Origin: Escherichia phage SUT_E420
Sequence record: OQ990039
Length of the DNA stretch: 64,000 bases
Reading direction: 5' to 3' (one strand)
This document shows, one piece after another, positions 29,715 to 54,373 of the stretch. The position numbers and the translations under genes were made by a program. The notes beneath the pieces are model-generated. The model searched no databases, was not told the origin of the DNA, and worked only from the letters and a program-made list of their open reading frames with translations. Position 1 is the stretch's first letter, and each line of letters begins with the position of its first letter.

Positions 29715-29745
29715 AGATTCATAAATTTGAGAGAGGAGTTTAAAT

Positions 29746-37468: not shown

Positions 37469-39661
37469 TTGAAAATCGCAGTAGTTGATAAAGCTCTAAA
37501 TAACACTCGTTACGATAAACATTTCCAGCTATACGGCGAGGAAGTTGATGTATTTCATATGTGTAACGAGAAGTTATCTGGTCGTTTGCTTAAAAAGCAC
37601 ATTACTATTGGAACACCAGAAAATCCATTTGATCCGAATGATTACGATTTTGTTATACTAGTAGGTGCTGAACCTTTCCTGTATTTCGCAGGTAAGAAAG
37701 GCATTGGTGACTATACTGGTAAACGTGTAGAATATAATGGATATGCTAACTGGATTGCAAGTATCAGCCCAGCCCAGTTACACTTTAAGCCTGAAATGAA
37801 ACCAGTTTTCGATGCAACAGTAGAGAATATCCACGATATTATCAATGGTCGTGAAAAGATTGCAAAAGCTGGTGATTACCGTCCTATTACTGACCCTGAT
37901 GAGGCGGAAGAATATATCAAGATGGTGTATAATATGGTTATCGGACCTGTCGCATTCGACTCCGAAACCTCAGCACTATACTGTCGAGATGGTTATCTGC
38001 TTGGTGTTTCTATATCTCACCAAGAGTATCAGGGTGTATATATCGATTCTGATTGTCTCACAGAGGTTGCAGTATATTATCTCCAGAAAATTCTGGATAG
38101 TGAAAACCACACTATTGTTTTTCACAACTTGAAGTTTGATATGCACTTTTATAAGTACCATCTGGGACTTACTTTTGATAAAGCACATAAAGAACGCAGG
38201 CTCCATGATACAATGTTGCAGCATTATGTTCTAGATGAGCGTCGTGGTACTCATGGCTTGAAATCTCTAGCAATGAAGTATACCGATATGGGTGACTATG
38301 ACTTTGAACTAGATAAGTTCAAAGATGATTACTGCAAAGCACATAAAATCAAGAAAGAAGATTTCACCTATGATTTAATTCCGTTTGATATTATGTGGCC
38401 TTACGCTGCAAAAGATACCGATGCCACCATACGCTTGCACAACTTCTTCTTACCAAAAATTGAGAAGAATGAAAAACTTTGCAGTCTGTATTATGATGTT
38501 CTAATGCCTGGTTGTGTATTTCTCCAGCGTGTTGAGGATCGTGGTGTACCNNNNNNNNNNNNNNNNNNNNNNNNNNNNNNNNNNNNNNNNNNNNNNNNNN
38601 NNNNNNNNNNNNNNNNNNNNNNNNNNNNNNNNNNNNNNNNNNNNNNNNNNGGGTATCGTGTAATCGCATGGGACTTAACAACTGCGGAAGTTTATTATGC
38701 TGCTGTTCTATCTGGGGATAGAAATATGCAACAGGTATTTATCAATATGAGAAATGAACCTGATAAATACCCGGACTTCCACTCTAACATCGCACACATG
38801 GTATTTAAACTCCAATGCGAGCCTCGTGATGTTAAAAAGTTATTCCCAGCTCTGCGTCAGGCTGCTAAGGCAATTACCTTCGGTATTTTGTATGGTTCTG
38901 GCCCAGCTAAAGTAGCTCATTCTGTTAACGAAGCTCTTCTGGAACAGGCTGCTAAGACAGGAGAACCGTTTGTTGAATGTACTGTTGCGGATGCGAAGGA
39001 CTATATCGAAACTTACTTCGGTCAGTTCCCACAGCTTAAGCGTTGGATTGATAAGTGCCACGATCAGATTAAGAATCATGGATTTATCTATAGTCACTTT
39101 GGTCGTAAGCGTCGTCTGCACAATATCCACTCCGAAGACCGTGGTGTTCAGGGTGAAGAAATTCGTTCTGGATTTAACGCAATCATTCAGTCTGCTTCCT
39201 CTGATAGCCTCCTTTTAGGTGCTGTAGATGCAGATAATGAGATCATTTCTCTTGGCCTAGAACAAGAGATGAAGATTGTTATGCTGGTTCATGACTCCGT
39301 GGTTGCTATTGTTCGTGAGGATTTGATCGACCAATACAATGAAATCCTGATTCGTAATATTCAGAAAGACCGTGGTATCAGTATTCCTGGCTGTCCGATT
39401 GGTATTGATTCAGATTCTGAAGCTGGAGGTTCTCGTGACTATTCTTGTGGTAAGATGAAGAAACAGCACCCATCAATCGCTTGTATTGATGATGATGAAT
39501 ATACTCGTTATGTCAAGAGTGTATTACTTGATGCAGAGTTCGAGTATAAGAAACTAGCTGCAATGGATAAAGAGCATCCAGATCATAGCAAATACAAGGA
39601 TGATAAGTTTATTGCTGTATGTAAAGATTTGGATAACGTAAGAAGGATTCTCGGTGCTTGA
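37469..39661 (+). CDS. DNA polymerase, family A (internal assembly gap)
   Basis: TTG start; 3'-5' exonuclease motifs (FDSETSAL, YAAKDTD) before the gap; motif A-like WDLTTAEVYYAA, motif B RQAAKAITFGILYGSG and motif C LVHDS after it; palm/thumb region missing at 38551-38650. Confidence 0.85.
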   Translation: MKIAVVDKALNNTRYDKHFQLYGEEVDVFHMCNEKLSGRLLKKHITIGTPENPFDPNDYDFVILVGAEPFLYFAGKKGIGDYTGKRVEYNGYANWIASISPAQLHFKPEMKPVFDATVENIHDIINGREKIAKAGDYRPITDPDEAEEYIKMVYNMVIGPVAFDSETSALYCRDGYLLGVSISHQEYQGVYIDSDCLTEVAVYYLQKILDSENHTIVFHNLKFDMHFYKYHLGLTFDKAHKERRLHDTMLQHYVLDERRGTHGLKSLAMKYTDMGDYDFELDKFKDDYCKAHKIKKEDFTYDLIPFDIMWPYAAKDTDATIRLHNFFLPKIEKNEKLCSLYYDVLMPGCVFLQRVEDRGVXXXXXXXXXXXXXXXXXXXXXXXXXXXXXXXXXXGYRVIAWDLTTAEVYYAAVLSGDRNMQQVFINMRNEPDKYPDFHSNIAHMVFKLQCEPRDVKKLFPALRQAAKAITFGILYGSGPAKVAHSVNEALLEQAAKTGEPFVECTVADAKDYIETYFGQFPQLKRWIDKCHDQIKNHGFIYSHFGRKRRLHNIHSEDRGVQGEEIRSGFNAIIQSASSDSLLLGAVDADNEIISLGLEQEMKIVMLVHDSVVAIVREDLIDQYNEILIRNIQKDRGISIPGCPIGIDSDSEAGGSRDYSCGKMKKQHPSIACIDDDEYTRYVKSVLLDAEFEYKKLAAMDKEHPDHSKYKDDKFIAVCKDLDNVRRILGA
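38551..38650. other. assembly gap (100 N) without flanking duplication, inside the DNA polymerase gene
   Basis: Flanks differ; motif spacing implies roughly 150 missing residues. Confidence 0.8.
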
Positions 39662-40151
39662 TTTCAAATTGCCCGTCTATACGTTACGGGCGTTTGTATC
39701 AATTGAGCAAGAAGGTGATTATTCCGTAATTACAACAAGATATAATAAATATGTGCTAGATAACAGGAAGTTGCCTGGCACGTTTTCTCAACGTAGGCTC
39801 ATTCTATTTGAGAAACGGAAAGAATTACCGTACAAGCTCTATCCTATTAGAGGTAGAATATCAATGTTGTCCCAATTAGTTGGGTCAAAGCGTAGCCAAT
39901 TTATAGATTCTGATGGAAATCTTATTAATTGGAAGAAAACTACGTTCTATGATGTTGTTACCTCTAAAGTTTTGAATTCAGCTAGAATTTATAACGGAAA
40001 ATACCAATGCTATGTAGCTAAAGTTCCATACCCATTTGTATTATCCTATGTTCCAGCTTATATAAGCTATATTCTGGTAAATAATAGCCCTGTTATTTAT
40101 CAAGTCCATCAAGAGGAGCCTGAAATTCCTAGACTTAGAATAAAATTATGA
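39654..40151 (+). CDS. hypothetical protein (165 aa, GTG start)
   Basis: AT-rich ORF between polymerase and helicase genes. Confidence 0.4.
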   Translation: MLDFKLPVYTLRAFVSIEQEGDYSVITTRYNKYVLDNRKLPGTFSQRRLILFEKRKELPYKLYPIRGRISMLSQLVGSKRSQFIDSDGNLINWKKTTFYDVVTSKVLNSARIYNGKYQCYVAKVPYPFVLSYVPAYISYILVNNSPVIYQVHQEEPEIPRLRIKL

Positions 40152-41500
40152 AGGTTGTTATATCTAATAAAGCCTATTTCAAGCCCGATGATGAACTTTG
40201 GGATTATTGTAGTAAGCAAACCACTTATCACATAGAGACAATGACTAGTAAATACCCTATTATGTATAAGAATAGTGGTGTTGTTGCTAAAGAGATTAAG
40301 TGGATTCCTATCACGCGTCTGGATTTATTAGATGCTAAAGGAGTAAAATACGAATTAGTAGATAAACGTACATTAGCTCCGGTAGATATACCAAAACCTA
40401 AGTTCAAGCTGCGTGAAGAAGACCAGCTCCCAATATATGAAGAGTGCGATGATACCTGTATTATTAATGGTAAGCCTGGGTTTGGTAAAACTATCCTAGC
40501 CCTTGCACTTGCGTATAAATTTGGCCAGAAAACTTTGGTAATCTGTACGAATACATCCATTCGTGAAATGTGGGCAGCAGAAGTTCGTAAATGGTTTGGG
40601 TTTGAACCGGGCATTATAGGTTCTGGGAAATACAATATTGATCCACCAATTGTAGTCAGTAATATTCAAACAGTGAATAAACATGCGAATAATCTTTCTA
40701 AAGTATTCGGTACTGTTATAGTTGATGAAGTTCACCATTGTGTGGCTACAACTTTCACCAACTTCCTAGAAATATCATGTGCTCGCTATAAGATTGGACT
40801 ATCTGGAACATTAAAACGGAAAGATGGTCTACAAGTTATGTTCAAAGATTTCTTTGGATATAAGATCTTTAGCCCACCGGTTAATAATACTGTTGCACCT
40901 ACAATCCATAGGTACTCCGTGCCTGTTGAGTTATCAGGAAACCAAAACGTACCATGGGCATTACGTGCTAATGATGTGTATAACCATCCTGAATATCGAG
41001 AGACTATTATAAACTTAGCACACTTATACGTGAATATGGGGCATAAAGTACTCATTGTAAGTGACAGAACAGAGTTAATCCAAACAGTACTAGAAGCTCT
41101 CGCACAGCGTGGTGTTACAACATATGAAATTATAGGGGCAACCCACTTGGATGACCGATTAAAAATTCAGGAAAATATAGCAAAAGGTGGGCCTTGTGTA
41201 CTTGCAGCAGCTCAAAGTATCTTCTCTGAAGGTATTTCCCTTAATGAGCTATCTTGTTTAATAATGGGGAGTCTCATTAATAATGAATCTCTCATTGAAC
41301 AGCTTGCAGGACGTGTTCAACGTATTGTCGATGGTAAACTCGACCCTATTGTTGTAGATCTAATTATGAAAGGTGGCACTGGACTAAGACAGGCTTCTGG
41401 ACGTATGGCAGTATATCGTAACAACGGGTGGAAAACTATTACCATGACTCCTGAGAAAGCAGTTCAATTAGCTAAAATTGCATTTGGCAACAGCTCATAA
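40148..41500 (+). CDS. SF2 DEAH-box helicase (T5 D10-like)
   Basis: 450 aa; Walker A GKPGFGKT, DEAH box VIVDEVHH, C-terminal helicase motifs. Confidence 0.7.
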   Translation: MKVVISNKAYFKPDDELWDYCSKQTTYHIETMTSKYPIMYKNSGVVAKEIKWIPITRLDLLDAKGVKYELVDKRTLAPVDIPKPKFKLREEDQLPIYEECDDTCIINGKPGFGKTILALALAYKFGQKTLVICTNTSIREMWAAEVRKWFGFEPGIIGSGKYNIDPPIVVSNIQTVNKHANNLSKVFGTVIVDEVHHCVATTFTNFLEISCARYKIGLSGTLKRKDGLQVMFKDFFGYKIFSPPVNNTVAPTIHRYSVPVELSGNQNVPWALRANDVYNHPEYRETIINLAHLYVNMGHKVLIVSDRTELIQTVLEALAQRGVTTYEIIGATHLDDRLKIQENIAKGGPCVLAAAQSIFSEGISLNELSCLIMGSLINNESLIEQLAGRVQRIVDGKLDPIVVDLIMKGGTGLRQASGRMAVYRNNGWKTITMTPEKAVQLAKIAFGNSS

Positions 41501-41512
41501 ATGATGTATAAT
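41484..41512 (+). promoter_or_regulatory. sigma70-type early promoter (plus): -35 TTGGCA, 17-bp spacer, -10 TATAAT
   Basis: Overlaps the end of the helicase gene; followed by the family leader. Confidence 0.6.
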
Positions 41513-41583
41513 ATATACATAAATTTGAGAGAGAAAGTTTCGGATTGATAAGAAAGTCCGAAGCAGAAAAATAAAAATTTTAG

Positions 41584-41613
41584 TTGCTAAATTCTCTCGA
41601 AATCTAGTATAAT
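41584..41613 (+). promoter_or_regulatory. sigma70-type early promoter (plus): -35 TTGCTA, 18-bp spacer, -10 TATAAT
   Basis: Second tandem promoter about 100 bp downstream of 41484-41512. Confidence 0.6.
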
Positions 41614-41720
41614 ATATACATAAATTCGAGGAGAAAACAAAAATTAAATTCTTCGATTATGAAAAGCTATACTTACTAGCTAGAGGAAATTCCGACCTAA
41701 TTATCAAGCTATTCAAAAGA

Positions 41721-42005
41721 ATGCTTACAGAGCCTGATGCTCATCAATTATTGGTCGGTTCCTCATTCATTTTGAATGAATCAACAATAGTTGATAATCC
41801 AAATAAATTGTCTAATAGACAACTGGCAGAATATCTAGGAATTTTAAGTCTACGAAATTATGCCGAATACAAGTTTACAAACGATCCTAGTTTGGACATA
41901 CAATATGTTCCAGTATGGATACCACGTTTAGTAATCGACACTAACCCACTAATCGCAATTAACAAATCGAAATTAATCTTTAAAGAGGAAATAAAATATG
42001 GCTAA
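41721..42005 (+). CDS. hypothetical protein (94 aa)
   Basis: ORF in track; no motif. Confidence 0.35.
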   Translation: MLTEPDAHQLLVGSSFILNESTIVDNPNKLSNRQLAEYLGILSLRNYAEYKFTNDPSLDIQYVPVWIPRLVIDTNPLIAINKSKLIFKEEIKYG

Positions 42006-42771
42006 GTCTTGGGGCGAAACTACTGGCGGTTCTAACGATAAAATCGAATTCCTGAAGTTCAACAACGGTATCACTCGTGTTCGTATCGTTTCTGGTGTTC
42101 TTCCACGTTATGTCTATTGGCTGACTAATAAAGAGGGTAACGTAGCTCCTTTCGAATGTCTCCGTTTTAACCGTGACAAAGAGAGCTTTGTTCGTGGTAA
42201 AGCTGATCCGGTTCATGAGATGGGCTTCTTCGAGAAAGAGCTGGATAAAGATGGTAATCGTGTTCCGCTGAAACCGAAGAAAAACTATATCGCTTTTGTT
42301 ATCGACCGTTCTGATAACAAACTGAAAGTAATGGAAGTCAAGGCTACTATTCTGAAAGGCATCCAGTCTATCATGAAGCAGCTGAGCCTGGCAACTCCGT
42401 TTGATATTGATATTTCTATCGAGAAAAAAGGTAAAGGTTTCGATACTGAGTATGATGTACAGCAGATTGCTGCTATGCAGTTCCAGATTAAGCTGCAAGA
42501 TCCTAACAGTGCAGAATCTAAGCAATATGCTGCAGATGTAGATCTGATCGGTGAAGCTATGTGTGATGAAGATGGCGACATCATTAAGTTCGAAAAAGTT
42601 CCTTCTCTGGAACAAACCTATCCGGTTCCTACCTATGAAGAGCAGAAAGAAGCAATTCTAGCCTTCATGGAAGGTCGTGAGAATAAAGATGATGATGCCA
42701 AATCTGGTAATAGCAATGCAGGCTCCCAGAAAGGTATTGACACAGAAGCTGCAAGCGATCTGGATGACTAA
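41998..42771 (+). CDS. highly expressed early protein (T5 D11-position), function unknown (257 aa)
   Basis: Ribosome-binding site AAAGAGGAAA, strong high-expression codon bias, acidic C-terminal tail (EAASDLDD); followed by a terminator. Confidence 0.5.
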   Translation: MAKSWGETTGGSNDKIEFLKFNNGITRVRIVSGVLPRYVYWLTNKEGNVAPFECLRFNRDKESFVRGKADPVHEMGFFEKELDKDGNRVPLKPKKNYIAFVIDRSDNKLKVMEVKATILKGIQSIMKQLSLATPFDIDISIEKKGKGFDTEYDVQQIAAMQFQIKLQDPNSAESKQYAADVDLIGEAMCDEDGDIIKFEKVPSLEQTYPVPTYEEQKEAILAFMEGRENKDDDAKSGNSNAGSQKGIDTEAASDLDD

Positions 42772-42796
42772 TAAATAGAGGGGCTTCGGCCCCTTT

Positions 42797-42896
42797 NNNN
42801 NNNNNNNNNNNNNNNNNNNNNNNNNNNNNNNNNNNNNNNNNNNNNNNNNNNNNNNNNNNNNNNNNNNNNNNNNNNNNNNNNNNNNNNNNNNNNNNN
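42797..42896. other. assembly gap (100 N) flanked by identical 77-bp copies
   Basis: 42720-42796 is identical to 42897-42973. Confidence 0.85.
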
Positions 42897-42956
42897 AGGC
42901 TCCCAGAAAGGTATTGACACAGAAGCTGCAAGCGATCTGGATGACTAATAAATAGA

Positions 42957-42979
42957 GGGGCTTCGGCCCCTTTCTTTTT
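42957..42979 (+). terminator. rho-independent terminator (GGGGC-TTCG-GCCCC plus T-run)
   Basis: GC stem with TTCG tetraloop followed by TTTCTTTTT; the first copy at 42780-42796 is truncated by the gap. Confidence 0.7.
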
Positions 42980-42984
42980 AACCA

Positions 42985-44139
42985 ATGAGAATATTATTTA
43001 GTGCTGATCATCATATCAAACTAGGACAAGATAAAGTTCCAAAGGAATGGCAGAAGCGTCGCTTCCTGATGCTAGGAGAACGGTTAAATGATATATTCCA
43101 TAATCATAACTGTGATCTTCATATTGCTGGTGGTGATATACTTGATGTTGCCGACCCGTCGTCAGAAGAAATAGAACTGCTTGAACAGTTCATGTCAAGA
43201 CTTGACCATCCAGGCAAAATCTTTACTGGAAATCATGAAATGTTAACGAAAACCATTTCATGTCTATATCATTATGCAGGAGTTATTAATAAAGTAACGA
43301 GTGGTAAGTGGGAAGTAATTACCAAACCATATCGTTCCCCTGAATTTGATATTGTTCCATATGACGAAATCCATAAATCTAAGTGGAAACCATCTGAATC
43401 AAAACTATGTTTCACGCATGTTCGTGGTGAAATCCCTCCACATGTAAAACCAGANNNNNNNNNNNNNNNNNNNNNNNNNNNNNNNNNNNNNNNNNNNNNN
43501 NNNNNNNNNNNNNNNNNNNNNNNNNNNNNNNNNNNNNNNNNNNNNNNNNNNNNNTCTAAGTGGAAACCATCTGAATCAAAACTATGTTTCACGCATGTTC
43601 GTGGTGAAATCCCTCCACATGTAAAACCAGAAATTGATCTAACTAAGTACAACTGTTATGATACTGTAATTGCTGGCGATTTACATTCTTATACTAATAG
43701 CCAGACTATCGGATCTACTAGACTCCTCTACCCAGGGTCTCCATTAACTACATCGTTCCATAGAGAACGCACAAAAGGTACAAATGGTTGCTTTATCGTT
43801 GATACCGACACATTAAAAGTAGAATGGATTGAACTCGGTGATTTACCACAACTGATTCGTAAAACAATCGGAGCTGGTGAAGAGATGGAACCTAGTGATT
43901 ATGATCGTGTAGTCTATGAAGTTACTGGTGACGTTGTTCAATTAAAGTCTATCAAAGACTCTGATTTATTAGATAAGAAGATTAACCATCGAGTTACTAA
44001 AGACGCTAAGTTAAATCTTGTTGATCTTGATATGTTAGGCGAACTTGAACTTTACTTCCGTGAAGTTGAGAAGCTATCTCAAGGCGACATTGATAGAATC
44101 TTGGCTAGAGCTGCGAAATATGTCAAAGATTACAATTAA
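42985..44139 (+). CDS. SbcD/Mre11-like nuclease (T5 D12-like)
   Basis: Calcineurin-like phosphoesterase motifs (ILFSADHH, GGDILD, FTGNHE); ORF contains the duplication artefact at 43455-43554. Confidence 0.75.
   Translation: MRILFSADHHIKLGQDKVPKEWQKRRFLMLGERLNDIFHNHNCDLHIAGGDILDVADPSSEEIELLEQFMSRLDHPGKIFTGNHEMLTKTISCLYHYAGVINKVTSGKWEVITKPYRSPEFDIVPYDEIHKSKWKPSESKLCFTHVRGEIPPHVKPXXXXXXXXXXXXXXXXXXXXXXXXXXXXXXXXXXSKWKPSESKLCFTHVRGEIPPHVKPEIDLTKYNCYDTVIAGDLHSYTNSQTIGSTRLLYPGSPLTTSFHRERTKGTNGCFIVDTDTLKVEWIELGDLPQLIRKTIGAGEEMEPSDYDRVVYEVTGDVVQLKSIKDSDLLDKKINHRVTKDAKLNLVDLDMLGELELYFREVEKLSQGDIDRILARAAKYVKDYN
43455..43554. other. assembly gap (100 N) flanked by identical 77-bp copies
   Basis: 43378-43454 is identical to 43555-43631. 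Confidence 0.85.
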
Positions 44140-46489
44140 GACACTAAAATTTAGTAACGTTATGTCTTACGGTAAGGACATCGTAATTCATNNNNNNNNN
44201 NNNNNNNNNNNNNNNNNNNNNNNNNNNNNNNNNNNNNNNNNNNNNNNNNNNNNNNNNNNNNNNNNNNNNNNNNNNNNNNNNNNNNNNNNNNGAAATATGT
44301 CAAAGATTACAATTAAGACACTAAAATTTAGTAACGTTATGTCTTACGGTAAGGACATCGTAATTCATCTCGATAAGAATCCCGTTACTCAACTAATCGG
44401 GGGCAATGGGCTAGGGAAATCTACAATTGCTACTGTTATTGAAGAACTATTCTATAATAAGAACTCACGCGGTATTAAGAAAGATGCTCTGTTCTCTTGG
44501 TCTTCTCCGAAAAAAGAATACGATATGCACGCTTATTTCTCGAAAGATGAGGATGAGTATGAACTGCATAAAGTAGTTAAGTCAACTGCTAAAGTAACTC
44601 TTATTAAGAATGGGGAAGATATTAGTGGACACACGGCAACCCAAACATACAAGATGATTGAAGAAATTATGGGTGGTGACTTCCAAACATTCACCAAACT
44701 GATTTATCAATCGGTGGGCTCCAATCTAGACTTTCTAAAAGCAACGGATGCAACACGTAAGGCTTTTCTTGTTAACTTGTTCAATCAAGAACAGTATAAA
44801 GAAATGTCAGAAACTATTAAGGCNNNNNNNNNNNNNNNNNNNNNNNNNNNNNNNNNNNNNNNNNNNNNNNNNNNNNNNNNNNNNNNNNNNNNNNNNNNNN
44901 NNNNNNNNNNNNNNNNNNNNNNNGATGCAACACGTAAGGCTTTTCTTGTTAACTTGTTCAATCAAGAACAGTATAAAGAAATGTCAGAAACTATTAAGGC
45001 TGACCGTAAAGAAATAGCAAATACCTTAAACAATTTGCAAGGCCAAATGGCTGTAATTACGAAAATCCTTAATGGAAAGAATAATCTAGGAACTCTACAG
45101 GAACCTGTAGAAGTACCGGAGTTTGATGAAGAACCATTAGCACAAGAACTTACTGAATCGAAAATTAAGGCGGCATTAGCCAAGTCTCAAGAGGCTAATA
45201 TTACTAAATTGCGTAATTTGGACAAAGCTGTACAAGTTGCCGAACAATCTTTCGAACCTTTCAAAAATTTACCCGCGCCCACCGACCAAAACGAAGAGAT
45301 CTCAAGTGTTACGCGTGACCTAACGATTGTGACCTCACGTGCTGGTGAAGTTAAGAAACGTTATCAGAAGTTCAAGCAAGAGGCTTCAAATACTGAATGT
45401 CCTACTTGTGGTACTCATCTGGATACAACTGCCGCTCAAAAAGCAATGGATATGGCTAGAACAGAATATGATCCTCTGTTCAAAGAGAAGCAATCTCTTG
45501 AAGCTAAGCTAGAACAGTTGAGGAAAGAACAACTTGAGTACGTTGCGTATATTAGAGCAAAGGATGCCTTGGATAAAGCAGTGGTAGCTAGGGACGAGTT
45601 CAAAAATTCAATGAGTGATGCTTCTTTTGAAGAACTCAATGTGCAAATCCTACAGGTGCAAATCCGACAATTAGAACAGGAAATCGCTGATGGNNNNNNN
45701 NNNNNNNNNNNNNNNNNNNNNNNNNNNNNNNNNNNNNNNNNNNNNNNNNNNNNNNNNNNNNNNNNNNNNNNNNNNNNNNNNNNNNNNNNNNNNGATGCTT
45801 CTTTTGAAGAACTCAATGTGCAAATCCTACAGGTGCAAATCCGACAATTAGAACAGGAAATCGCTGATGGACGTTCTAAGGTTGCAATTGCCAAAGAGCA
45901 TAATGCAAATGTCGAATTAGCCAATGCAAAATATAAAGCGAAACTAGAACAGATTGAGAAAGCTGAAGCAGAAATGTCCGAGATTACTTCCAAATTAAAT
46001 GAAGTATCAGAAGCTGTTGCTGATCTCGATATTCTGATTGCTGCATTGAAGAATTTAGTAGGATATAAACTAGAGCATAGTGTGAAAGTATTTGAAGAAC
46101 TAATTAATAAATACCTTTCTATTATGACTGGCGGTAAATTCGCACTTGGATTTGAACTTGATGAAACAAAATTACAAGTAGTAATCTTCAATGATGGAAA
46201 TCGTACCAGTATGGAGAACTGCTCTACTGGTCAACAGAGTCGAATTAACCTAGCAACCCTGTTAGCTATTCGGATGCTGTTAACATCTATTAGTAAAGTT
46301 AATATTAATCTTCTATTCCTTGATGAAGTAATTAGCTTTATTGATACGAAAGGACTTGACACTCTTGTTGAATTATTAAACGAGGAAGAAAGTCTAAATT
46401 CTATCATTGTTTCTCATGGGCATACGCATCCACTAGCTCATAAGATTACTGTCAAAAAAGATGCAGAAGGATTTTCCTACTTAGAATAA
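44119..46489 (+). CDS. SbcC/Rad50-like ATPase (T5 D13-like)
   Basis: Start at MSKITIKTLKF; Walker A GGNGLGKST, long central coiled coil, C-terminal signature/Walker B region (LLFLDEV); three duplication artefacts inflate the track ORF by about 177 aa. Confidence 0.7.
44192..44291. other. assembly gap (100 N) flanked by identical 77-bp copies
   Basis: 44115-44191 is identical to 44292-44368. Confidence 0.85.
44824..44923. other. assembly gap (100 N) flanked by identical 77-bp copies
   Basis: 44747-44823 is identical to 44924-45000. Confidence 0.85.
45694..45793. other. assembly gap (100 N) flanked by identical 77-bp copies
   Basis: 45617-45693 is identical to 45794-45870. Confidence 0.85.
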
Positions 46490-46492
46490 AAC

Positions 46493-47152
46493 ATGGCTGT
46501 AGATAGTAGAGAGAAAGGTAAACGTGGTGAATATCAGGTAAGAGATATTCTACGTGAGCGTACAGGTCTTGAGTGGGAACGTGTTCCTGGCTCTGGTGCT
46601 TTTGGCCAGAGCCACGGACTGAAAGGTGACATCTACCTTCCACCACAAAGCGGACACATTAGTAAATACTGCTTCGAAGTTAAGTGGTANNNNNNNNNNN
46701 NNNNNNNNNNNNNNNNNNNNNNNNNNNNNNNNNNNNNNNNNNNNNNNNNNNNNNNNNNNNNNNNNNNNNNNNNNNNNNNNNNNNNNNNNCACGGACTGAA
46801 AGGTGACATCTACCTTCCACCACAAAGCGGACACATTAGTAAATACTGCTTCGAAGTTAAGTGGTATAAAGATGATAATATATCAAGTAATTTATTTAAT
46901 GTTGGTGAATCCACTCTAGAGAAGTGGTGGCAGCAGTGCTCACGTGAAGGTGAGCAGATGAACTCCAAACCTGCATTAATATTCAAAAAAGACAGAGGAC
47001 AGTGGTTAATAGCTTTGGATAGCTCAGACCCAATGGTTGACAACTTAATGAGTCGTACCCATATGGTGTTAAATAAGAAAGACATGGAAATCGTAATTGG
47101 TTTATTTGAACCGTGGCTACATCATGCATCTGTTGAGGACTTAATTAAATAA
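46493..47152 (+). CDS. PD-(D/E)xK-type nuclease-like protein (T5 D14-like)
   Basis: GDIY...FEVKW resembles a PD-(D/E)xK core; contains one duplication artefact (true length about 160 aa). Confidence 0.45.
   Translation: MAVDSREKGKRGEYQVRDILRERTGLEWERVPGSGAFGQSHGLKGDIYLPPQSGHISKYCFEVKWXXXXXXXXXXXXXXXXXXXXXXXXXXXXXXXXXXHGLKGDIYLPPQSGHISKYCFEVKWYKDDNISSNLFNVGESTLEKWWQQCSREGEQMNSKPALIFKKDRGQWLIALDSSDPMVDNLMSRTHMVLNKKDMEIVIGLFEPWLHHASVEDLIK
46690..46789. other. assembly gap (100 N) flanked by identical 77-bp copies
   Basis: 46613-46689 is identical to 46790-46866. Confidence 0.85.
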
Positions 47153-48204
47153 TGAGTAAATCCTGGGGAAAATTTATTGAAGAAGAGGAAGCTGAAATGG
47201 CTTCCCGTCGTAACCTAATGATTGTCGATGGAACTAACTTAGGCTTTCGCTTCAAACATAANNNNNNNNNNNNNNNNNNNNNNNNNNNNNNNNNNNNNNN
47301 NNNNNNNNNNNNNNNNNNNNNNNNNNNNNNNNNNNNNNNNNNNNNNNNNNNNNNNNNNNNNGAGGAAGCTGAAATGGCTTCCCGTCGTAACCTAATGATT
47401 GTCGATGGAACTAACTTAGGCTTTCGCTTCAAACATAACAACAGTAAAAAACCATTTGCCTCAAGTTATGTTTCCACTATTCAGTCTCTAGCAAAATCTT
47501 ATTCTGCTAGAACTACAATAGTTTTAGGAGATAAGGGGAAGTCTGCATTCCGCTTAGAGCATTTACCTGAGTATAAGGGTAATCGAGATGAGAAATACTC
47601 TCAGCGTACGGAAGAGGAGAAAGCGTTAGATGAGCAGTTCTTCGAGTATTTGAAAGATGCTTTCGAGTTATGTGAAACTACATTCCCAACTTTCACTATT
47701 CGGGGTGTAGAAGCAGATGATATGGCAGCTTATATTGTTAAACTGATCGGGCATCTATATGATCACGTTTGGCTGATTTCTACTGATGGTGACTGGGATA
47801 CTTTATTAACTGATAAAGTATCTCGCTTCTCTTTCACAACACGTCGTGAATACCATCTTCGTGATATGTATGAGCATCATAATGTTGACGATGTAGAGCA
47901 GTTTATCTCCCTGAAAGCAATTATGGGTGATTTAGGGGATAATATCCGAGGTGTTGAAGGTATTGGGGCAAAGCGCGGGTATAATATTATTCGTGAATTT
48001 GGTAACGTTCTGGATATTATTGATCAGCTTCCACTGCCTGGAAAACAGAAATATATACAGAATTTAAATGCTTCGGAAGAATTGCTTTATCGAAACCTAA
48101 TTCTGGTTGATTTACCTACCTACTGTGTGGATGCTATTGCTGCTGTAGGTCAAGATGTATTAGATAAATTTACAAAAGATATTTTGGAGATTGCAGAACA
48201 ATGA
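47152..48204 (+). CDS. flap endonuclease / 5'-3' exonuclease (T5 D15-like)
   Basis: After removing the duplication artefact the product is 291 aa; N-terminus MSKSWGKFIEEEEAEMASRRNLMIVDGTNLGFRFKH matches T5 exonuclease as recalled; acidic active-site clusters (VEADD, STDGDWD). Confidence 0.9.
   Translation: MSKSWGKFIEEEEAEMASRRNLMIVDGTNLGFRFKHXXXXXXXXXXXXXXXXXXXXXXXXXXXXXXXXXXEEAEMASRRNLMIVDGTNLGFRFKHNNSKKPFASSYVSTIQSLAKSYSARTTIVLGDKGKSAFRLEHLPEYKGNRDEKYSQRTEEEKALDEQFFEYLKDAFELCETTFPTFTIRGVEADDMAAYIVKLIGHLYDHVWLISTDGDWDTLLTDKVSRFSFTTRREYHLRDMYEHHNVDDVEQFISLKAIMGDLGDNIRGVEGIGAKRGYNIIREFGNVLDIIDQLPLPGKQKYIQNLNASEELLYRNLILVDLPTYCVDAIAAVGQDVLDKFTKDILEIAEQ
47262..47361. other. assembly gap (100 N) flanked by identical 77-bp copies
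   Basis: 47185-47261 is identical to 47362-47438. Confidence 0.85.
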
Positions 48205-48647
48205 TTAAAATTAAATTAACTCATCCAGATTGTATGCCTAAGATTGGTTCCGAAGATGCCGCAGGTATGGATCTGCGAGCATTCTTTGGTACTAATCCTG
48301 CCGCAGACTTACGCGCTATTGCACCAGGCAAATCTCTTATGATTGACACCGGTGTCGCGGTAGAAATTCCGCGAGGTTGGTTCGGTTTGGTAGTTCCTCG
48401 TAGTTCTTTAGGTAAACGCCATTTGATGATTGCAAATACCGCAGGAGTGATTGACTCAGACTATCGTGGAACTATTAAGATGAATCTGTTTAACTACGGT
48501 TCTGAAATTCAAACTCTGGAGAATTTTGAAAGACTTTGTCAGCTAGTAGTAGTACCACACTACTCAACTCATAATTTTGAAATCGTTGACGAACTAGGGG
48601 AGACTGATCGTGGGGAAGGTGGATTTGGAAGTTCAGGAAGCAAATAA
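48201..48647 (+). CDS. dut: dUTP diphosphatase
   Basis: 148 aa; dUTPase motifs (AAGMDLRA, GVIDSDYRG) and C-terminal Gly-rich tail. Confidence 0.85.
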   Translation: MIKIKLTHPDCMPKIGSEDAAGMDLRAFFGTNPAADLRAIAPGKSLMIDTGVAVEIPRGWFGLVVPRSSLGKRHLMIANTAGVIDSDYRGTIKMNLFNYGSEIQTLENFERLCQLVVVPHYSTHNFEIVDELGETDRGEGGFGSSGSK

Positions 48648-48873
48648 TTTTACTGATCCTAATATGATAGGTATTGATACTAATATGTTAACTTATCAGA
48701 TTAAAACTGCTGAACCAGAAACGTTTGTGCTAAAAACAGATAAAGAAGGTAATGTTACTTTCTGGGACCCTGAAGGTTTTGTAGAGCTTTGTACTAATAC
48801 GGATAATGAGCATTTAAAACTACTATTAGCTATTTATAATCTTGGTATTATAGAAGGTTGTAGAAGCAAGTAA
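48610..48873 (+). CDS. hypothetical protein (87 aa)
   Basis: ORF overlapping the dut end; last gene of the rightward block. Confidence 0.3.
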   Translation: MGKVDLEVQEANNFTDPNMIGIDTNMLTYQIKTAEPETFVLKTDKEGNVTFWDPEGFVELCTNTDNEHLKLLLAIYNLGIIEGCRSK

Positions 48874-48881
48874 TAGAAAAA

Positions 48882-48914
48882 CCCCGGTGGATTTTGTCCA
48901 CCGGGGTTTCTTTG
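48882..48914. terminator. bidirectional rho-independent terminator
   Basis: 10-bp stem CCCCGGTGGA/TCCACCGGGG with A-run upstream and T-run downstream, between the convergent dut block and the tail-fibre gene. Confidence 0.7.
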
Positions 48915-48929
48915 TACTATGTATATGTA

Positions 48930-51698
48930 CTATGAGTTATCTGGCTTAATAAGCTCGCTAACAAGTTTCTTCAGTTCGGTTAATTCTTGCTCAAGTTTGT
49001 TAACTTTATCAGCTTGATAACGAAATGCGCAAGCTAGATCTGCCATAATGACGTTGTTATCAAGTGCTAATGTGTCATCTGCTTTGTCAACAACAATTTG
49101 GCGGTCTACATATTCTTCACCGTCATCGTTAACACCTATAACATCTGCAAAAATATCTCCACCAGGAATTAATTTTACATATTCCGGGTCTATTTTTAGA
49201 AGGTCTTGGGCTATTAAGCCAAATCGCTGTATGTTGCTTCCATTGTATTTAAACATTGTCGGAAGCCACTGCATAACGCGATCATAGCTTTCTTTTCCAT
49301 CTGTATAGATTATATCGTGCTTTAAATCTCTGTCAGAGTTAGCGGCCTTTTGAAAAATGAAGTTTCCATTTGATGACCATGTGGTTATATCGTTTGAGGC
49401 TGGTTGAAACTGGAAGTTACAGAAAAAATTACCATCACCACGAAGTCTTAACGAGCAAAAAGGCCAAGCATTATTTCCCTGTGGGATAAGACCCCAAGTT
49501 GCACGAATTGGATAACCACCAGTTGATTGTGTACCCCATGAAAGGCCAGGCGCCCATCCACCATCATTGTTAGGAATAATCTCGCCCCAAACAAGAGCAT
49601 TACCCCAATAGTTAGGATCATCCCAGCCCATTTGTTGGGTTTTGCCAGTGTATTGAGCAGAATGAGTTCTGCCGTCAGGGTAAAACTTGTGCATATAGGA
49701 CTGTATCCCTGCTTGATACAATTCTATTCCAAAAGATTCAACGTGTGTGTCGCCTCTTCTGATTAAACCAGCGATAGCGTAATCGTCATACCAGTTGTAA
49801 CGACTTACACCAGTCCATGTGTTTATTGGTGGATTCATGATTGAGAATAGTTGTGACGCATTGCGTTCATTCCCGTCTGCATAAATACCAGCCCCAGGAG
49901 CTAAGGAAATACTTTTCGCTCCCGAAAAAGTACCATTTTCATTAAACTGATAATACTGTGCTAACCCATTATGAAATACGCCTATTGTATGCTTTCCTAC
50001 GCCTACTTGAGTCTCAAAATACGACTGAGAAGAACCAATATCTTCGCCTTGGGTATTCTTTAGTTTTGAATGGTATATACCTGCGTTTGCAGTAACTGCA
50101 TTTTCCGTTTCATTTTCAACATTAAGACTAAGGAACTTTGGCGCATGTTTCTCACCAAGCCCTATATTATTTCTGATACCATTCGCATCCTTAGCACCTG
50201 TACCACCAAATTGAATACCTAGTGGTAGCCATTGATCGGTGGTAGCATCATAAACGCCCCAATGATCCCCGTCAGCTGGAATGGTTAGATACTTGTTTTT
50301 ATTTGGAGAATATAAAACTGTTTCTACAGAATTCTGAAACAGCCTATCAACTCCTAAATTATATCTAGCACCTTCAGGAGTATCTGCTCCTGTACCCCCA
50401 GCCGCAGTTGATAATGGAAGAGTTTCCCATGAAATTCCGTCACCTGTTGCATTTCTCTGAAGTACAATAAGACCATCATCTCTAATAACAAATCTATATA
50501 ATCTATTATGTGAATATAAAAAAGTATGAACCCCATCTTGCACAAGTGAGTCTATAAGGAGTGTCTGACGAGAAGCATTGATATCCAACAGATCTGAAAG
50601 ATTATTTTCTTTTAATAACGATTTACTAATGATACCTTCAGCTTTTCCAGCAGCCACTTCCGCGCGCCCAGCGTCTGTAGATGCGCTTTGTGCGCTACCA
50701 GCAGCATTGCTAGCTTGTTGTCCTGCTTCGATAGCGCTATTGCTTGCTTGTGCAGCGGAAGCAGCAGCAGCATCTTTTAGCGTGGTAGTTTCGGACACAG
50801 CAGCGTCCTTAATTCCCTGTGTGTCTATTTTTAGCTGCTCAACGTCTGATTTTAAAGCTACTGTCTCTGCTACTGCAGTATCCTTAATACCTTGTGTATC
50901 TATTTTTAGCTGTTCAACATCTGATTTTAAGCCTTGAATAGTAGTTACTGATTGGCTAGCTGAGGCTGCGGAATGGGCTGCATTGGTTTCACTAGTTTTT
51001 GCATTGGTTTCACTAGTTTTTGCATTGGTTTCACTAGCTTTTGCATTAGTTTCCGAGGTTTTTGCAGCGGATGCTGATGCGGCGGCTTGTGCAGAGAATA
51101 TTTCTGCCCCATCTCTATAGCCTTTAGAATCCGAAGCAGAAGCAGCAGCATTAGTTTCACTAGCCTTTGCCTTATCTTCACTAGTCTTTGCTGCAATAGC
51201 AGAAGCAGCAGCATTAGTTTCACTAGCCTTTGCCTTATCTTCGCTAGCCTTTGCATTAGTCTCACTAGTTTTTGCGTTAGTCTCACTAGTTTTTGCATTA
51301 GTTTCACTAGCCTTTGCCTTATCTTCGCTAGTTTTAGCATTAGTCTCAGATATTTTAGCTGCAGCTGCTGATTCCTCCGATTTAGTAGCTGATGCAGCAG
51401 ATTGAGTAGCAGATGTAGCGGACTGAGTGGCAGAGGCTTCAGAAGCTCCAGCAGAAATAGCAGCTTCCTGTTCAGAGTTCTTAGCATTAAGCTCCGAAGT
51501 TTTAGCCGCTATCTCAGAATCTTTTGCAGCTGCAGCAGACTTAGCTGCAGCCTCAATAGAAGATACTAACTCACTTGCAGTAATAGAGCTAATAGAATTA
51601 CCTAGAGTTACTGTATATCTAGGAAACTTACTAGCAGTAGCTTTAGTATCATCAATATTTAATATTTGTTGTACAATAATTTTAGTAGTTACTGCCAT
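48930..51698 (-). CDS. L-shaped tail fibre protein (pb1/Ltf-like) with C-terminal intramolecular chaperone domain
   Basis: 922 aa; N-terminal Ala/Ser/Thr-rich heptad repeats (KTSETNA/KASEDKA); C-terminal region (DLKHDIIYTDGKESYDRVMQWLP...GLIAQDL) resembles the self-cleaving chaperone of tail fibres. Confidence 0.7.
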   Translation of the reverse strand: MAVTTKIIVQQILNIDDTKATASKFPRYTVTLGNSISSITASELVSSIEAAAKSAAAAKDSEIAAKTSELNAKNSEQEAAISAGASEASATQSATSATQSAASATKSEESAAAAKISETNAKTSEDKAKASETNAKTSETNAKTSETNAKASEDKAKASETNAAASAIAAKTSEDKAKASETNAAASASDSKGYRDGAEIFSAQAAASASAAKTSETNAKASETNAKTSETNAKTSETNAAHSAASASQSVTTIQGLKSDVEQLKIDTQGIKDTAVAETVALKSDVEQLKIDTQGIKDAAVSETTTLKDAAAASAAQASNSAIEAGQQASNAAGSAQSASTDAGRAEVAAGKAEGIISKSLLKENNLSDLLDINASRQTLLIDSLVQDGVHTFLYSHNRLYRFVIRDDGLIVLQRNATGDGISWETLPLSTAAGGTGADTPEGARYNLGVDRLFQNSVETVLYSPNKNKYLTIPADGDHWGVYDATTDQWLPLGIQFGGTGAKDANGIRNNIGLGEKHAPKFLSLNVENETENAVTANAGIYHSKLKNTQGEDIGSSQSYFETQVGVGKHTIGVFHNGLAQYYQFNENGTFSGAKSISLAPGAGIYADGNERNASQLFSIMNPPINTWTGVSRYNWYDDYAIAGLIRRGDTHVESFGIELYQAGIQSYMHKFYPDGRTHSAQYTGKTQQMGWDDPNYWGNALVWGEIIPNNDGGWAPGLSWGTQSTGGYPIRATWGLIPQGNNAWPFCSLRLRGDGNFFCNFQFQPASNDITTWSSNGNFIFQKAANSDRDLKHDIIYTDGKESYDRVMQWLPTMFKYNGSNIQRFGLIAQDLLKIDPEYVKLIPGGDIFADVIGVNDDGEEYVDRQIVVDKADDTLALDNNVIMADLACAFRYQADKVNKLEQELTELKKLVSELIKPDNS
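50978..51350. repeat. tandem 21-bp/42-bp repeats encoding heptad repeats of the tail-fibre shaft
   Basis: Four near-identical copies of GCATTGGTTTCACTAGTTTTT at 50978-51062 and related 42-bp units to about 51350. Confidence 0.75.
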
Positions 51699-52120
51699 TA
51701 TTTAGTTACCCCATCACTGATAAATACTTTACCCTCCATTATACGAAAGGAGCTAATTGCAGATCCTATAACATCTCTAGTCATAATTATATCATAGTAT
51801 CCTGCGAATCGCTGACGAGGGTTATATTTATCTCTATCTTTAGATGCTCTAGCCCCTATATTTTCCACAGATTCTACTGGCAAACTTATAGCTACAGCCC
51901 CTTGAGCAGCATCAATAATATTAGTAGTAAAGGATGCTAATATCTCCGCATTCTCATCTAGGCTATTTTTTATAGTACCCCTTAGAGAATACCCGGTTAA
52001 GTTAACGGGGGTATTTGTAGGTGGATAAGTACTATCATCAACATCTAAGAACTGCATCATTAAACCATATGGTACTTTCTCATCTATTACTAAATCTATA
52101 ACTCTATTTTCAGTACTCAT
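51698..52120 (-). CDS. tail collar protein (T5 p132-like)
   Basis: 140 aa, between the pb4-like gene and the tail fibre; size and position match T5 p132 from memory. Confidence 0.45.
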
Positions 52121-52123
52121 TAT

Positions 52124-54373
52124 TTACCTTATATGGATGTACCCGTTTTGCAGGTCTATCTTCATTCTGTAATAGGCTTCCGGATTATCAGATAATGCAG
52201 CGTTTCTATCATAAATAACGTTAACACCGATCTGAGATAAGAAGGCATTATTTGCTACAATCTTACTGGCGGTTACCGTACCATTAACTATCATATCGCC
52301 ATGCAGTACCATTGCTGGGTTAACCCAACCGGAACCATTCCATTGACGAGTAAATGCAGATTGCGGAGCATTACTATTAAACTCTGTCAATACATCATAT
52401 CTAACTGGAGGACTACCAAAGTTATTCTGGAAGAAGGCATTAGCCTGCCCATCATCCCAACCACCAAGACCAGGAATACCTAAGGAATACATTCCAGGAC
52501 CACGTTGTCCATCATGTCCTATAGTACCTTCAGTACCACTCCACTGAACTACATCAGACCAGCTAGTACCTGCAAGTAGCTTATTAGTAACTGGGTCAAG
52601 TGTACCCGTAGTCGCATAGATATTTTGTGTCATATCTGTACGATTAGGTGGAGTTTTTGACCAACCAGGAGGCGGATAATCTTGTTCTAGTGGCTTTGCT
52701 GGAAGTGCAGTTGATATCTTATAAACAAATACTGTTTGCTTGCCCTGTATACCTGTTTGGATATCTACATCGCCATTTGGTGTTCCAATTACTACTCCAC
52801 TAGAAATACGTAGTACATCACCATCATAACGAATCCACTGTGTGGCATTACCAATGTCTAACTTAGCTTTGGCAGAGGTATTATCCATGCCCATCCAAAT
52901 ACCGGAGTTATTATCCCCCCAAGATTTACCTTGAGTGTAAATTGCTGGATTATCCTTACCGGATAAGTTAGTCATGATAAAATTCGCAGCATTAATATCT
53001 CTAGTAATTACTTTACCATCAACGTTAACAACACGGTTTATAGGATCAAAAGAAATAGGTGCTTTTCCCTCTTCATCTAGCAGACCAATGTTAATAGCAC
53101 CAGTAGCTGCATCGATTAAGAATGTCTGTCTCCAGATTTCTCCATCTTTCATGCTGCCCTTAATAAAGGCATAGTTAACATCAATACCAGTCTCATTGAC
53201 AAAGCTGTTATCTAGAGGAGTATCTTCATTCAATATAAATGTTACAGGAGCTGATTCTGTTATATCTTGTTTATTTGGTCCCCAGGCAATTGATGATACC
53301 TTAAAGGTATGTTCAACTTTCCATGGGAATGATATAATTGTTGCAGCTCTGGCAGCACCAACGTTTATCTTTTGAGCTTTAGCCCAGCCAGTCTTAGCGT
53401 ATTCTTCAGAATTTATATATGTAACCAAGAACTCACGAACATTAGCACCACCACCGCGTTCCCAATCCCACTCAATTCTAACATCATATCGTTCTTTACC
53501 ATCAGCAATTCGTGCAGCTTTAAAAACAATATTGATAGGTGCAGTAGGAGGAACAAAATTATAAGCTACTGTTAAAATATTAGGGAATTCATAGTACCCA
53601 GAAGAATCAACTGTAACACCATCAGGCATAGTTACTTGACCAGATATTCTGATCTTATAATCTCCGATAGGAACTCCACCAAATTTAATAGTAGAACCTA
53701 AAGCCCCAATGTAATACTTAGTCCAAGGACTGTCTTCAGTAGCTGTACTTTTTAACTCAATAGTACAGTAGCTTGCTTCACCAGTTGTTTCTACGACAAC
53801 TATCGGTGCACCTACCCCAACATCCACAGGTTCTGATTCAGATCTTGCTGCAACAATTATTGGCTTCTCTTTTGTCCTAAAGTTAGTCTCATTAGAGAGA
53901 TTGATACCAATCTTAGCCTCTAGCAGTTCAGAATCAATAATAGAGTCGTAGAAAGCCCCTTGAATCTCGTAAGAGGTTGAAGGGGTCAGGTTATTAATCA
54001 TTATGAAGAAAGTATCTATACCAGTATAATCACGTCTATCTATACTTTCTCCTGTCTTTAACCAAAAAGATCTACCAATAANNNNNNNNNNNNNNNNNNN
54101 NNNNNNNNNNNNNNNNNNNNNNNNNNNNNNNNNNNNNNNNNNNNNNNNNNNNNNNNNNNNNNNNNNNNNNNNNNNNNNNNNGAAGAAAGTATCTATACCA
54201 GTATAATCACGTCTATCTATACTTTCTCCTGTCTTTAACCAAAAAGATCTACCAATAACGTCATAGTCAGTATATATAGAGTGCTGGACATATGCCATTG
54301 TATATCCAGTCATTATACTATTTAAGACCATTTTGGCTGGTGCATTATTCGAAATCATTAAATGGATGCCCAC
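52124..54373 (-). CDS. baseplate/tail tip protein (T5 pb4-like)
   Basis: Large structural ORF downstream of the pb3-like gene; contains the duplication artefact at 54082-54181 (true length about 690 aa). Confidence 0.5.
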   Translation of the reverse strand: MGIHLMISNNAPAKMVLNSIMTGYTMAYVQHSIYTDYDVIGRSFWLKTGESIDRRDYTGIDTFFXXXXXXXXXXXXXXXXXXXXXXXXXXXXXXXXXXIGRSFWLKTGESIDRRDYTGIDTFFIMINNLTPSTSYEIQGAFYDSIIDSELLEAKIGINLSNETNFRTKEKPIIVAARSESEPVDVGVGAPIVVVETTGEASYCTIELKSTATEDSPWTKYYIGALGSTIKFGGVPIGDYKIRISGQVTMPDGVTVDSSGYYEFPNILTVAYNFVPPTAPINIVFKAARIADGKERYDVRIEWDWERGGGANVREFLVTYINSEEYAKTGWAKAQKINVGAARAATIISFPWKVEHTFKVSSIAWGPNKQDITESAPVTFILNEDTPLDNSFVNETGIDVNYAFIKGSMKDGEIWRQTFLIDAATGAINIGLLDEEGKAPISFDPINRVVNVDGKVITRDINAANFIMTNLSGKDNPAIYTQGKSWGDNNSGIWMGMDNTSAKAKLDIGNATQWIRYDGDVLRISSGVVIGTPNGDVDIQTGIQGKQTVFVYKISTALPAKPLEQDYPPPGWSKTPPNRTDMTQNIYATTGTLDPVTNKLLAGTSWSDVVQWSGTEGTIGHDGQRGPGMYSLGIPGLGGWDDGQANAFFQNNFGSPPVRYDVLTEFNSNAPQSAFTRQWNGSGWVNPAMVLHGDMIVNGTVTASKIVANNAFLSQIGVNVIYDRNAALSDNPEAYYRMKIDLQNGYIHIR
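54082..54181. other. assembly gap (100 N) flanked by identical 77-bp copies
   Basis: 54005-54081 is identical to 54182-54258. Confidence 0.85.

Follow-up and report, generated by a model that had tools for sequence, protein, structure and literature searches.

De Bruijn assemblies of strain mixtures fragment into contigs that overlap by exactly k bases, that alternate between shared and allele-specific sequence, and that break where shared k-mers begin or end, beside a variant. An overlap of exactly k between contig ends requires a branching vertex; a coverage dropout leaves dead ends with an overlap that is absent or shorter than k, and cannot yield exactly k common bases. With 150-bp reads, the largest default k in SPAdes is 77. 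Free-standing HNH homing endonuclease genes occur in T5-like phages, and co-conversion of flanking markers in mixed infection has been documented for T-even phages. The single-strand interruptions of T5 DNA follow the consensus R/GCGCRGG (PMC3517423).

The window analyzed here (64,000 nt of Escherichia phage SUT_E420, record OQ990039) resembled a fragmented strain mixture in its exact-k overlaps, its alternation of contigs, and the position of its breaks, and the pattern was repeated in a second library. Unlike in plain strain-mixture fragmentation, the contigs were joined manually with 100 N before deposition, so that the vertices persist as 77-nt direct duplications that truncate annotated genes. 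We assigned a probability of about 0.87 to the reading that the seven breaks clustered in 42720-47438 are a mixed-genotype assembly artefact, that is, unmerged SPAdes k = 77 junctions caused by a second, related genotype.

Twelve N-runs were present in the window, all of exactly 100 N. Ten of these lay between the two copies of an exact 77-nt direct duplication, whose starts are 177 nt apart, while the runs at 29064-29163 and 38551-38650 were without overlap and were 652 nt and 475 nt short, respectively, relative to SUT_E1520. As an explanation of the gap at 38551-38650, the LAGLIDADG insertion that a Logan contig has in its DNA polymerase gene was considered and rejected, given that its border (about L001 18037) lies outside the missing 18177-18651. 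Seven of the ten overlap-type junctions were located in 42720-47438, and the remaining three at 5834-6087, 27448-27701, and 54005-54258. When breaks were placed uniformly in the window (200,000 simulations), seven of ten fell inside any 4465 nt with P about 7e-5, and with all 12 gaps counted the chance was 4e-4; the clustering described in the original prediction was thus confirmed.

The source paper of the phage reported 2x150 reads, assembly with SPAdes 3.15.3, and manual joining of contigs in SnapGene, from which it follows that the joins are unmerged k = 77 graph vertices and that each break is a branching de Bruijn vertex. All ten junction overlaps were exactly 77 nt, the length found at k = 77 contig ends. 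Cutting 177 nt at each join gave continuous sequence with nothing missing at the overlap-type joins. The length after cutting (10001 - 7 x 177 = 8762 nt) equaled the span in three complete genomes, and the joined sequence from 38651 to the end of the window (23,934 nt) was 100.000% identical to SUT_E1520. The window represents a T5-like phage (Tequintavirus) draft that was stitched together by hand, and its breaks are an assembly artefact and no feature of the genome. The contig breaks originally predicted were real junctions, but the manual end-to-end joining of SPAdes contigs behind the Ns and duplicated ends had been missed. Merging the overlaps is enough to close every overlap-type gap; as deposited, the artificial 77-nt duplications and 100-N spacers truncate the annotated D12, D13, D14, and D15, which is a matter of data hygiene.

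Genes D11, D12, D13, D14, and D15 (41998-48204, plus strand) were named from the annotated T5, T5_ev212, and SUT_E1520 records, in agreement with the earlier placement of the breaks in D11- to D15-like genes. They were identified as the ssDNA-binding protein D11, the SbcD-like D12, the SbcC-like D13, D14, and the flap endonuclease D15, and were intact once each 177-nt N-plus-duplicate segment was cut (257, 325, 612, 160, and 291 aa; 0 internal stops). The block was 100% identical to SUT_E1520 and 99.9-100% identical to EC148 and T5_ev212, and its genes are colinear with those of T5 (AY543070), which identifies it as the Tequintavirus recombination block.

Contig boundaries from the window and from the separately assembled SUT_E520 record were compared with the positions at which maximal exact matches of at least 77 nt to nine panel phages start or end, using random placement (20,000) and shifted positions as controls. 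Ten of the 35 boundaries coincided with such ends, compared with a mean of 0.41 (maximum 5 in 20,000) for random placement and a mean of 0.375 (maximum 3) for the shift control. Boundary coincidences recurred in independent relatives from IMG/VR, Logan, and ENA, and phage L6jm by itself reproduced the boundaries L001 23202, 23838, 24217, and 24986. Of the positions in the region, 13-16% are polymorphic; at all ten window boundaries within the range of the panel, a polymorphic site was found on the side that strict alternation predicts (L001 18176R, 18652L, 22797R, 23202L, 23838R, 24217L, 24986R, 25729L, 26200R, and 32767L, with R and L giving the right or left side). The 77-mers of all seven clustered junctions thereby abut a site that is polymorphic among related Tequintaviruses, on sides that run R, L, R, L, R, L, R, and strictly alternating sides are expected of alternating shared and variant contigs. 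This is the signature of variant bubbles, and it strongly supports the population heterogeneity or mixed infection that had been suspected from the window. It also means that checking whether a k-mer vertex lies next to natural polymorphisms can reveal why a contig breaks, even with no reads at hand.

The 77-mer of the first junction (42720-42973; 77-mer at 42720-42796, 100 N, repeated at 42897-42973) spans the D11 stop codon, a terminator hairpin, and the D11|D12 spacer, with divergence to the right, after 42973. Its vertex ends at L001 22797, the exact end of the alignment to Salmonella phage MET_P1_179_112, which at that point has 461 nt of inserted sequence that includes an HNH_3 endonuclease ORF. 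The second junction (43378-43631) is inside D12, with convergence from the left; L001 23201, the base directly before its vertex, is variant in AKFV33, OSYSP, and PS3-1, and an exact-match block of at least 77 nt begins at L001 23202 in OSYSP, PS3-1, AKFV33, L6jm, and SP15. The sides of these two junctions delimit a putative variable patch (42974-43377, plus strand), the core of contig 42897-43454, which would be the bubble allele of the main genotype. At the third junction (44115-44368), in the D12/D13 overlap with divergence to the right, the base directly after the vertex (L001 23839) is variant in 10 of 12 panel phages, and the exact-match block of many relatives stops at L001 23838. The fourth (44747-45000) is inside D13, with convergence from the left; L001 24216 is variant in six panel phages, and the exact-match block begins at L001 24217 in AKFV33, L6jm, and L055. 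A second putative patch (44369-44746, plus strand; core of contig 44292-44823) was drawn from the sides of the third and fourth junctions, and L6jm had no exact match of at least 77 nt anywhere in the corresponding L001 23839-24216.

The fifth junction (45617-45870) is also inside D13, with divergence to the right, and the SUT_E520 record breaks at the identical vertex. L001 24987 is variant in Elw, FFH1, OSYSP, T5, and VEc33, and the exact-match block of several relatives stops at L001 24986. The sixth (46613-46866), inside D14 with convergence from the left, has the weakest support of the seven, with L001 25728 variant in one relative only (VEc33). From the sides of the fifth and sixth, a third candidate patch (45871-46612, plus strand; core of contig 45794-46689) would span the D13|D14 boundary at 46489-46493, and Salmonella phage LmqsSP1 carries a 503-nt homing-endonuclease insert within it, between L001 25607 and 25609. 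The seventh junction (47185-47438) lies at the 5' end of D15, with divergence to the right; L001 26201 is variant in Elw and VEc33, and the exact-match block stops at L001 26200 in Elw, L027, L029, L033, L037, L053, and L054. By the alternation of sides, a fourth probable patch (47439-54004; core of contig 47362-54081) holds D15, dUTPase, and tail-fibre genes and stops at junction 54005-54258, where L001 32766 is variant in Elw, MET179, OSYSP, and VEc33 and where SUT_E520 again breaks at the identical vertex.

Outside the cluster, no adjoining polymorphism was found at junction 5834-6087 in the three close relatives examined. A scan of IMG/VR for vertices adjoined by a non-reference base returned no contigs for 25729L, 22797R, or 6087R; matches were found for 24986R and 23838R and served only to enlarge the panel. 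No single database phage reproduced every junction. EC148 and T5_ev212 were tried as the second genotype in the cluster and rejected, with one to three differences, none of them adjacent to a junction (the nearest at 24636, against a vertex start of 24640). The rejection applies to the cluster only, and both phages do fit the contig starts at L001 6699 and 8790, which are exact-match starts against them.

These results are best accounted for by sequenced DNA that would have comprised two genotypes, a main one identical to SUT_E1520 and a second one from a closely related Tequintavirus. From the sequence we infer both the alleles of the second genotype and its physical presence in the library, through a mixed stock, co-infection, or cross-contamination. 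Over long stretches the second genotype would equal the main one or differ in small bubbles only, which the assembler would have popped. In patches of several hundred nucleotides in D12, D13, and D13-D14, and also from D15 into the tail-fibre genes, its alleles would be divergent, and each patch would form a bubble too long to collapse or to be spanned by read pairs. For this reason contigs would alternate between shared and main-genotype-only sequence, with each end placed at the outermost 77-mer still common to both genotypes; each break is a branching vertex of the final graph. With 100 N inserted between successive k = 77 contigs and the k-mer overlaps left unmerged, four such patch boundaries close together in the block would give seven junctions in 4.7 kb; the clustering would thus follow from short stretches of the recombination genes in which the second genotype differs.

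Other origins for the breaks were weighed against the mixed-genotype reading. The local coverage problem named in the original prediction does not fit, because an exact-k overlap needs a branching vertex and not a dropout, and this bears equally on the proposal, there called speculative, that T5-type site-specific nicks lower library coverage and so break the assembly in the block. One part of that proposal stood, in that the homologue of a major T5 interruption (GGCGCGGG, minus strand, 45272-45279) maps within D13, where it corresponds to the AY543070 misc_feature at 78573/78574, and junction 5834-6087, outside the block, ends 8 nt from the homologue of T5 nick 39746/39747. The motif sites at these two homologous positions (6089-6096 and 45272-45279) are on the same strand as in T5 and are candidate nick sites by motif homology. 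However, the D13 site is the one site of its type in the block; no junction there falls on R/GCGCRGG or even on RGCGC, and the nearest junction edges lie 272 and 338 nt away from the site, which leaves the seven junctions unexplained. Only two GCGC sites occur in L001 22000-27000, and the median distance from junction to GCGC (732) was no smaller than at random (713). A nick also interrupts one strand only, leaving the other amplifiable, can make no k-overlap branch, and would not account for the adjacency of junctions to natural polymorphisms. Nicking was accordingly considered very improbable as the cause.

Repeats within the phage genome were given even less credence, at the lowest level of all the readings weighed. 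Repeat-collapsed graph nodes are the commonest general cause of k-overlap contig ends, but a search through 92.7 kb of the identical SUT_E1520 genome found no second copy, on either strand, of any 20-, 25-, or 31-mer from L001 22700-26300, which bears out the earlier impression that the region is not repetitive, and the block is single-copy and colinear in the complete genomes of EC148, T5_ev212, and SUT_E1520. Somewhat more room, though still little, was left for technical branches (systematic sequencing errors, high-depth PCR chimeras, or low-level index cross-talk from another library on the run) with no second phage in the stock. SPAdes assemblies are known to break up when phage data sets are very deep, reported depth was high (589x for the sister phage SUT_E1620), and several T5-like phages were sequenced together in the study. 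Random errors or chimeras, however, would not fall beside natural polymorphic sites on alternating sides. SUT_E1620, the only other T5-like phage sequenced in the study, was rejected as a contaminant, since it lacks the junction 77-mers and none of its 24 exact matches of at least 77 nt to the window starts or ends at a junction, so that these matches coincide with 0 breaks. If the cross-talk came from a Tequintavirus library that was unsequenced or unpublished, it would be inseparable from a mixed stock; this case is a variant of the mixed-genotype explanation, not a rival to it.

A more specific history of the mixture is offered only tentatively and was considered rather unlikely, namely that the stocks hold a recombinant swarm of two co-infecting Tequintaviruses, generated by HNH homing endonuclease repair at D11|D12 and D13|D14. 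Such repair would co-convert flanking sequence over variable distances. In T5-like relatives, HNH genes are located exactly at the D11|D12 spacer, where the first junction ends, and at the D13|D14 boundary, within the third patch, and the divergent patches of the window flank these insertion sites. Unlike those relatives, the window has no endonuclease gene, and we infer its presence in the second genotype. If true, the swarm would explain why divergent patches hug the two insertion sites, why the first junction ends at the exact base of a relative's HNH insertion, and why two libraries share some patch borders and not others.

The SUT_E520 record contained 18 N-gaps, six of them in the D11-D15 block with 77-nt overlaps on alternating sides, as in the window. 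Vertices L001 24910-24986 and 32767-32843 and the contig start at 18652 were identical in the two records, and only some vertices were common; this would mean either that the two libraries contained different second genotypes or that identical bubbles were resolved in different ways during assembly. Both deposited records hold main-genotype contigs only, and no second genotype was found among the SUT_E520 contigs, every one of which was 100% identical to SUT_E1520. In the source paper, SUT_E1520 was described as myovirus-like by electron microscopy; its genome is that of a T5-like siphovirus and is identical to the other two, a mismatch that points to mixing or cross-contamination of the stocks. 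A single genome sequence thus stands behind three "different" phages of the study, and at least two stocks or libraries would have been mixed, which matters for what has been claimed about the host range and biocontrol use of these phages. A SIR2-like protein specific to the main genotype was found in exactly three contigs on record, the one shown being SUT_E1520, and the contig of its gene was present whole in the SUT_E520 record.

The window was placed in Tequintavirus (T5-like phages) by megablast, and each contig between its N-runs matched Escherichia phage SUT_E1520 (OQ885479) at 100.000% identity. There are 12 N-runs, each of exactly 100 N, the length used by convention in GenBank where the size of a gap is unknown. 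Ten of them sit between the two copies of an exact 77-nt direct duplication (the 77 bases preceding the Ns recur directly after them), and for 150-bp reads the default k values of SPAdes go up to 77. In the source paper, 2x150 reads were assembled with SPAdes 3.15.3 and contigs were joined by hand in SnapGene. Seven of these ten junctions, numbered here from left to right (42720-42973, 43378-43631, 44115-44368, 44747-45000, 45617-45870, 46613-46866 and 47185-47438), lie between 42720 and 47438 in the block of D11-D15 recombination genes; the remaining three occupy 5834-6087, 27448-27701 and 54005-54258. Overlap is absent at two N-runs, 29064-29163 and 38551-38650. Uniform placement of ten breaks put seven within 4465 nt at a frequency of 7e-5 (200,000 simulations), or 4e-4 when all twelve gaps were counted in the same simulated test. 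The clustering of seven of the ten overlap-type breaks, as described in the original prediction, is real and not a product of chance.

In each of three complete genomes, the counterpart of the query 40000-50000 (10,001 nt) was 8,762 nt long, exactly 10,001 − 7 × 177. After the N-run and one copy of the 77-mer were deleted per join, the sequence from 38651 to the window end equaled SUT_E1520 over 23,934 nt, and the merged D11, D12, D13, D14 and D15 products were 257, 325, 612, 160 and 291 aa with no internal stops. No sequence is lost at the seven joins of the cluster, and the record is reparable via overlap merging. The gaps at 29064-29163 and 38551-38650 fell short of SUT_E1520 by 652 nt (part of the origin-binding/helicase gene) and 475 nt (part of the DNA polymerase gene), respectively.

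In a de Bruijn graph, contigs with exactly k bases in common meet at a vertex having an extra in or out edge, while a read-free stretch leaves dead ends with fewer than k bases in common, or none. The overlaps of exactly k bases therefore argue against a coverage dropout, and the local coverage problem that had been suspected is not supported, given that exact 77-nt overlaps need a graph branch. Either a repeat or a variant could supply the extra edge. Repeats were excluded as the cause of the junctions in the block, since none of its 20-, 25- or 31-mers recurs on either strand in 92.7 kb of the identical genome, in agreement with the earlier impression that this region is not repetitive.

If variants are responsible, each vertex should be the last common 77-mer ahead of a difference or the first one past it. 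Maximal exact matches of at least 77 nt were determined between the main genome (identical to SUT_E1520) and nine related phages, and 10 of the 35 contig boundaries in the window and in the record of the sister phage SUT_E520 were exact ends of such matches. Random placement gave a mean of 0.41 and a maximum of 5 (20,000 trials), and shifting all boundaries by 1-60 nt gave a mean of 0.375 and a maximum of 3. The coincidences recurred with relatives independently fetched from IMG/VR, Logan and ENA, and Salmonella phage L6jm alone reproduced four consecutive window boundaries (23202, 23838, 24217 and 24986 on the SUT_E1520 locus). In panel alignments, where only 13-16% of positions vary, a varying position directly adjoined 10 of the 11 distinct overlap vertices in the block. 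The eleventh, junction 1, ends at the base where the alignment of Salmonella phage MET_P1_179_112 stops; at that base this phage carries a 461-nt insert with an HNH endonuclease (Pfam HNH_3, E = 1.9e-13).

The side of the varying position alternates strictly across junctions 1 to 7 (right, left, right, left, right, left, right) and carries on at junction 54005 (left). Ten of ten correct on the specified side has a probability of ~1e-8 against a 16% background. Strict alternation is the pattern expected of contigs that switch between sequence common to two genotypes and sequence specific to one. By this alternation, 43555-44191, 44924-45693 and 46790-47261 would be common to both genotypes, and 42897-43454, 44292-44823, 45794-46689 and 47362-54081 would be main-genotype alleles of bubbles. 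The edges of both non-overlap gaps also adjoin polymorphic sites and fit the alternation phase, and these gaps are probably bubbles whose contigs were omitted.

Site-specific nicking of T5 DNA had been proposed as a speculative link. In the T5 record AY543070, the minus strand is annotated with major single-strand interruptions at 39746/39747 and, inside D13, at 78573/78574; the published nick consensus is R/GCGCRGG (PMC3517423). Homologous motif matches were found on the minus strand of the window at 6089-6096 and 45272-45279, so one major nick site does map into the block, in D13, but the closest junction edges are 272 and 338 nt away from it. Only two GCGC tetranucleotides occur in the block, and distances from the junctions to GCGC were no shorter than those from random points. 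For the cluster, the proposed link to nicks is not supported. Junction 5834-6087 lies downstream of a bidirectional terminator and stops 8 nt before the 6089-6096 motif (the homologue of 39746/39747), right at the foot of a GC-rich hairpin (6088-6114); the rough chance of a motif site lying ≤10 nt from any junction edge is about 2.5%. No difference adjoins this junction in T5_ev212, EC148 or MM-1, and no variant was found there in IMG/VR. Given the lack of adjoining polymorphism in these three close relatives, the variant test does not explain this junction, unlike the others; it may be due to a variant that was not seen, to an artefact of the hairpin or of nicking, or to coincidence.

The clustered breaks are an assembly and scaffolding artefact caused by sample heterogeneity, not by coverage loss or nicking, and the artefact is of low biological interest. 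The exact-match, adjacency and alternation tests together bear out the population heterogeneity or mixed infection that had been suspected, from which we infer a second genotype in the same sequenced DNA. Towards the left of the window, boundaries match differences of EC148 and T5_ev212, and those in the D11-D15 block match differences of L6jm, OSYSP, AKFV33, VEc33 and Elw; on these comparisons the second genotype seems to be mosaic and closely related to the main one. The two would be near-identical for long stretches, with divergence in patches of about 400, 380 and 740 nt and in a longer one reaching from D15 into the tail-fibre genes; the closeness of these patches within the block would account for the clustering of the seven junctions. 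Two patches touch sites of free-standing homing endonucleases in relatives, at D11|D12 (MET_P1_179_112) and D13|D14 (LmqsSP1), and the second genotype may differ by homing endonuclease genes and their co-converted flanks. SUT_E1620, another sister phage, was rejected as the second genotype. The mixture may have arisen by co-infection, an impure stock or library cross-contamination.

Among relatives, an HNH gene lies between D11 and D12 in MET_P1_179_112 (L013:7924-8286), a homing endonuclease between D13 and D14 in LmqsSP1 (L056:3803-4312), a LAGLIDADG insertion within the DNA polymerase gene in Logan SRR25936356 (L051:1-1074), and an HNH gene between the helicase and primase genes in MM-1, VEc33 and MET_P1_179_112.

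SUT_E520 was assembled separately; of the 18 N-gaps in its record, six fall within the D11-D15 block, and there too the overlaps are 77 nt long and the sides alternate. Two vertices, 24910-24986 and 32767-32843, are exactly the same in this record and in the window, as is a contig start at 18652, the base at which a SUT_E520 gap ends (all on the SUT_E1520 locus). All SUT_E520 contigs were 100% identical to SUT_E1520; with all contigs of both records 100.000% identical to it, three separately named phages have one genome sequence. In the source paper, SUT_E1520 looked like a myovirus by electron microscopy, whereas its genome is that of a T5-like siphovirus, which suggests that the stocks were not clean. 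The study's phage stocks were probably mixed, and differences in the paper's receptor-binding protein tree probably reflect fragmented genes.

A SIR2-family protein (24285-25100, 271 aa) was found on only three contigs in a 153-billion-gene collection, one of them listed as SUT_E1520; the SUT_E520 record holds the whole gene-bearing contig. EC148 and T5_ev212 have a SIR2-like gene in the same region, differently placed. A 13-copy array of imperfect 21-nt (7-codon) tandem repeats at 50959-51359 is part of the large tail-fibre gene on the minus strand (27692-30460 on the SUT_E1520 locus). Upstream of the small ORF preceding D11, 31-nt A+T-rich direct repeats with TATAAT (41499-41529 and 41600-41630, 101 nt apart) match in position P31A and P31B, which are annotated as tandem promoters in T5 AY543070.
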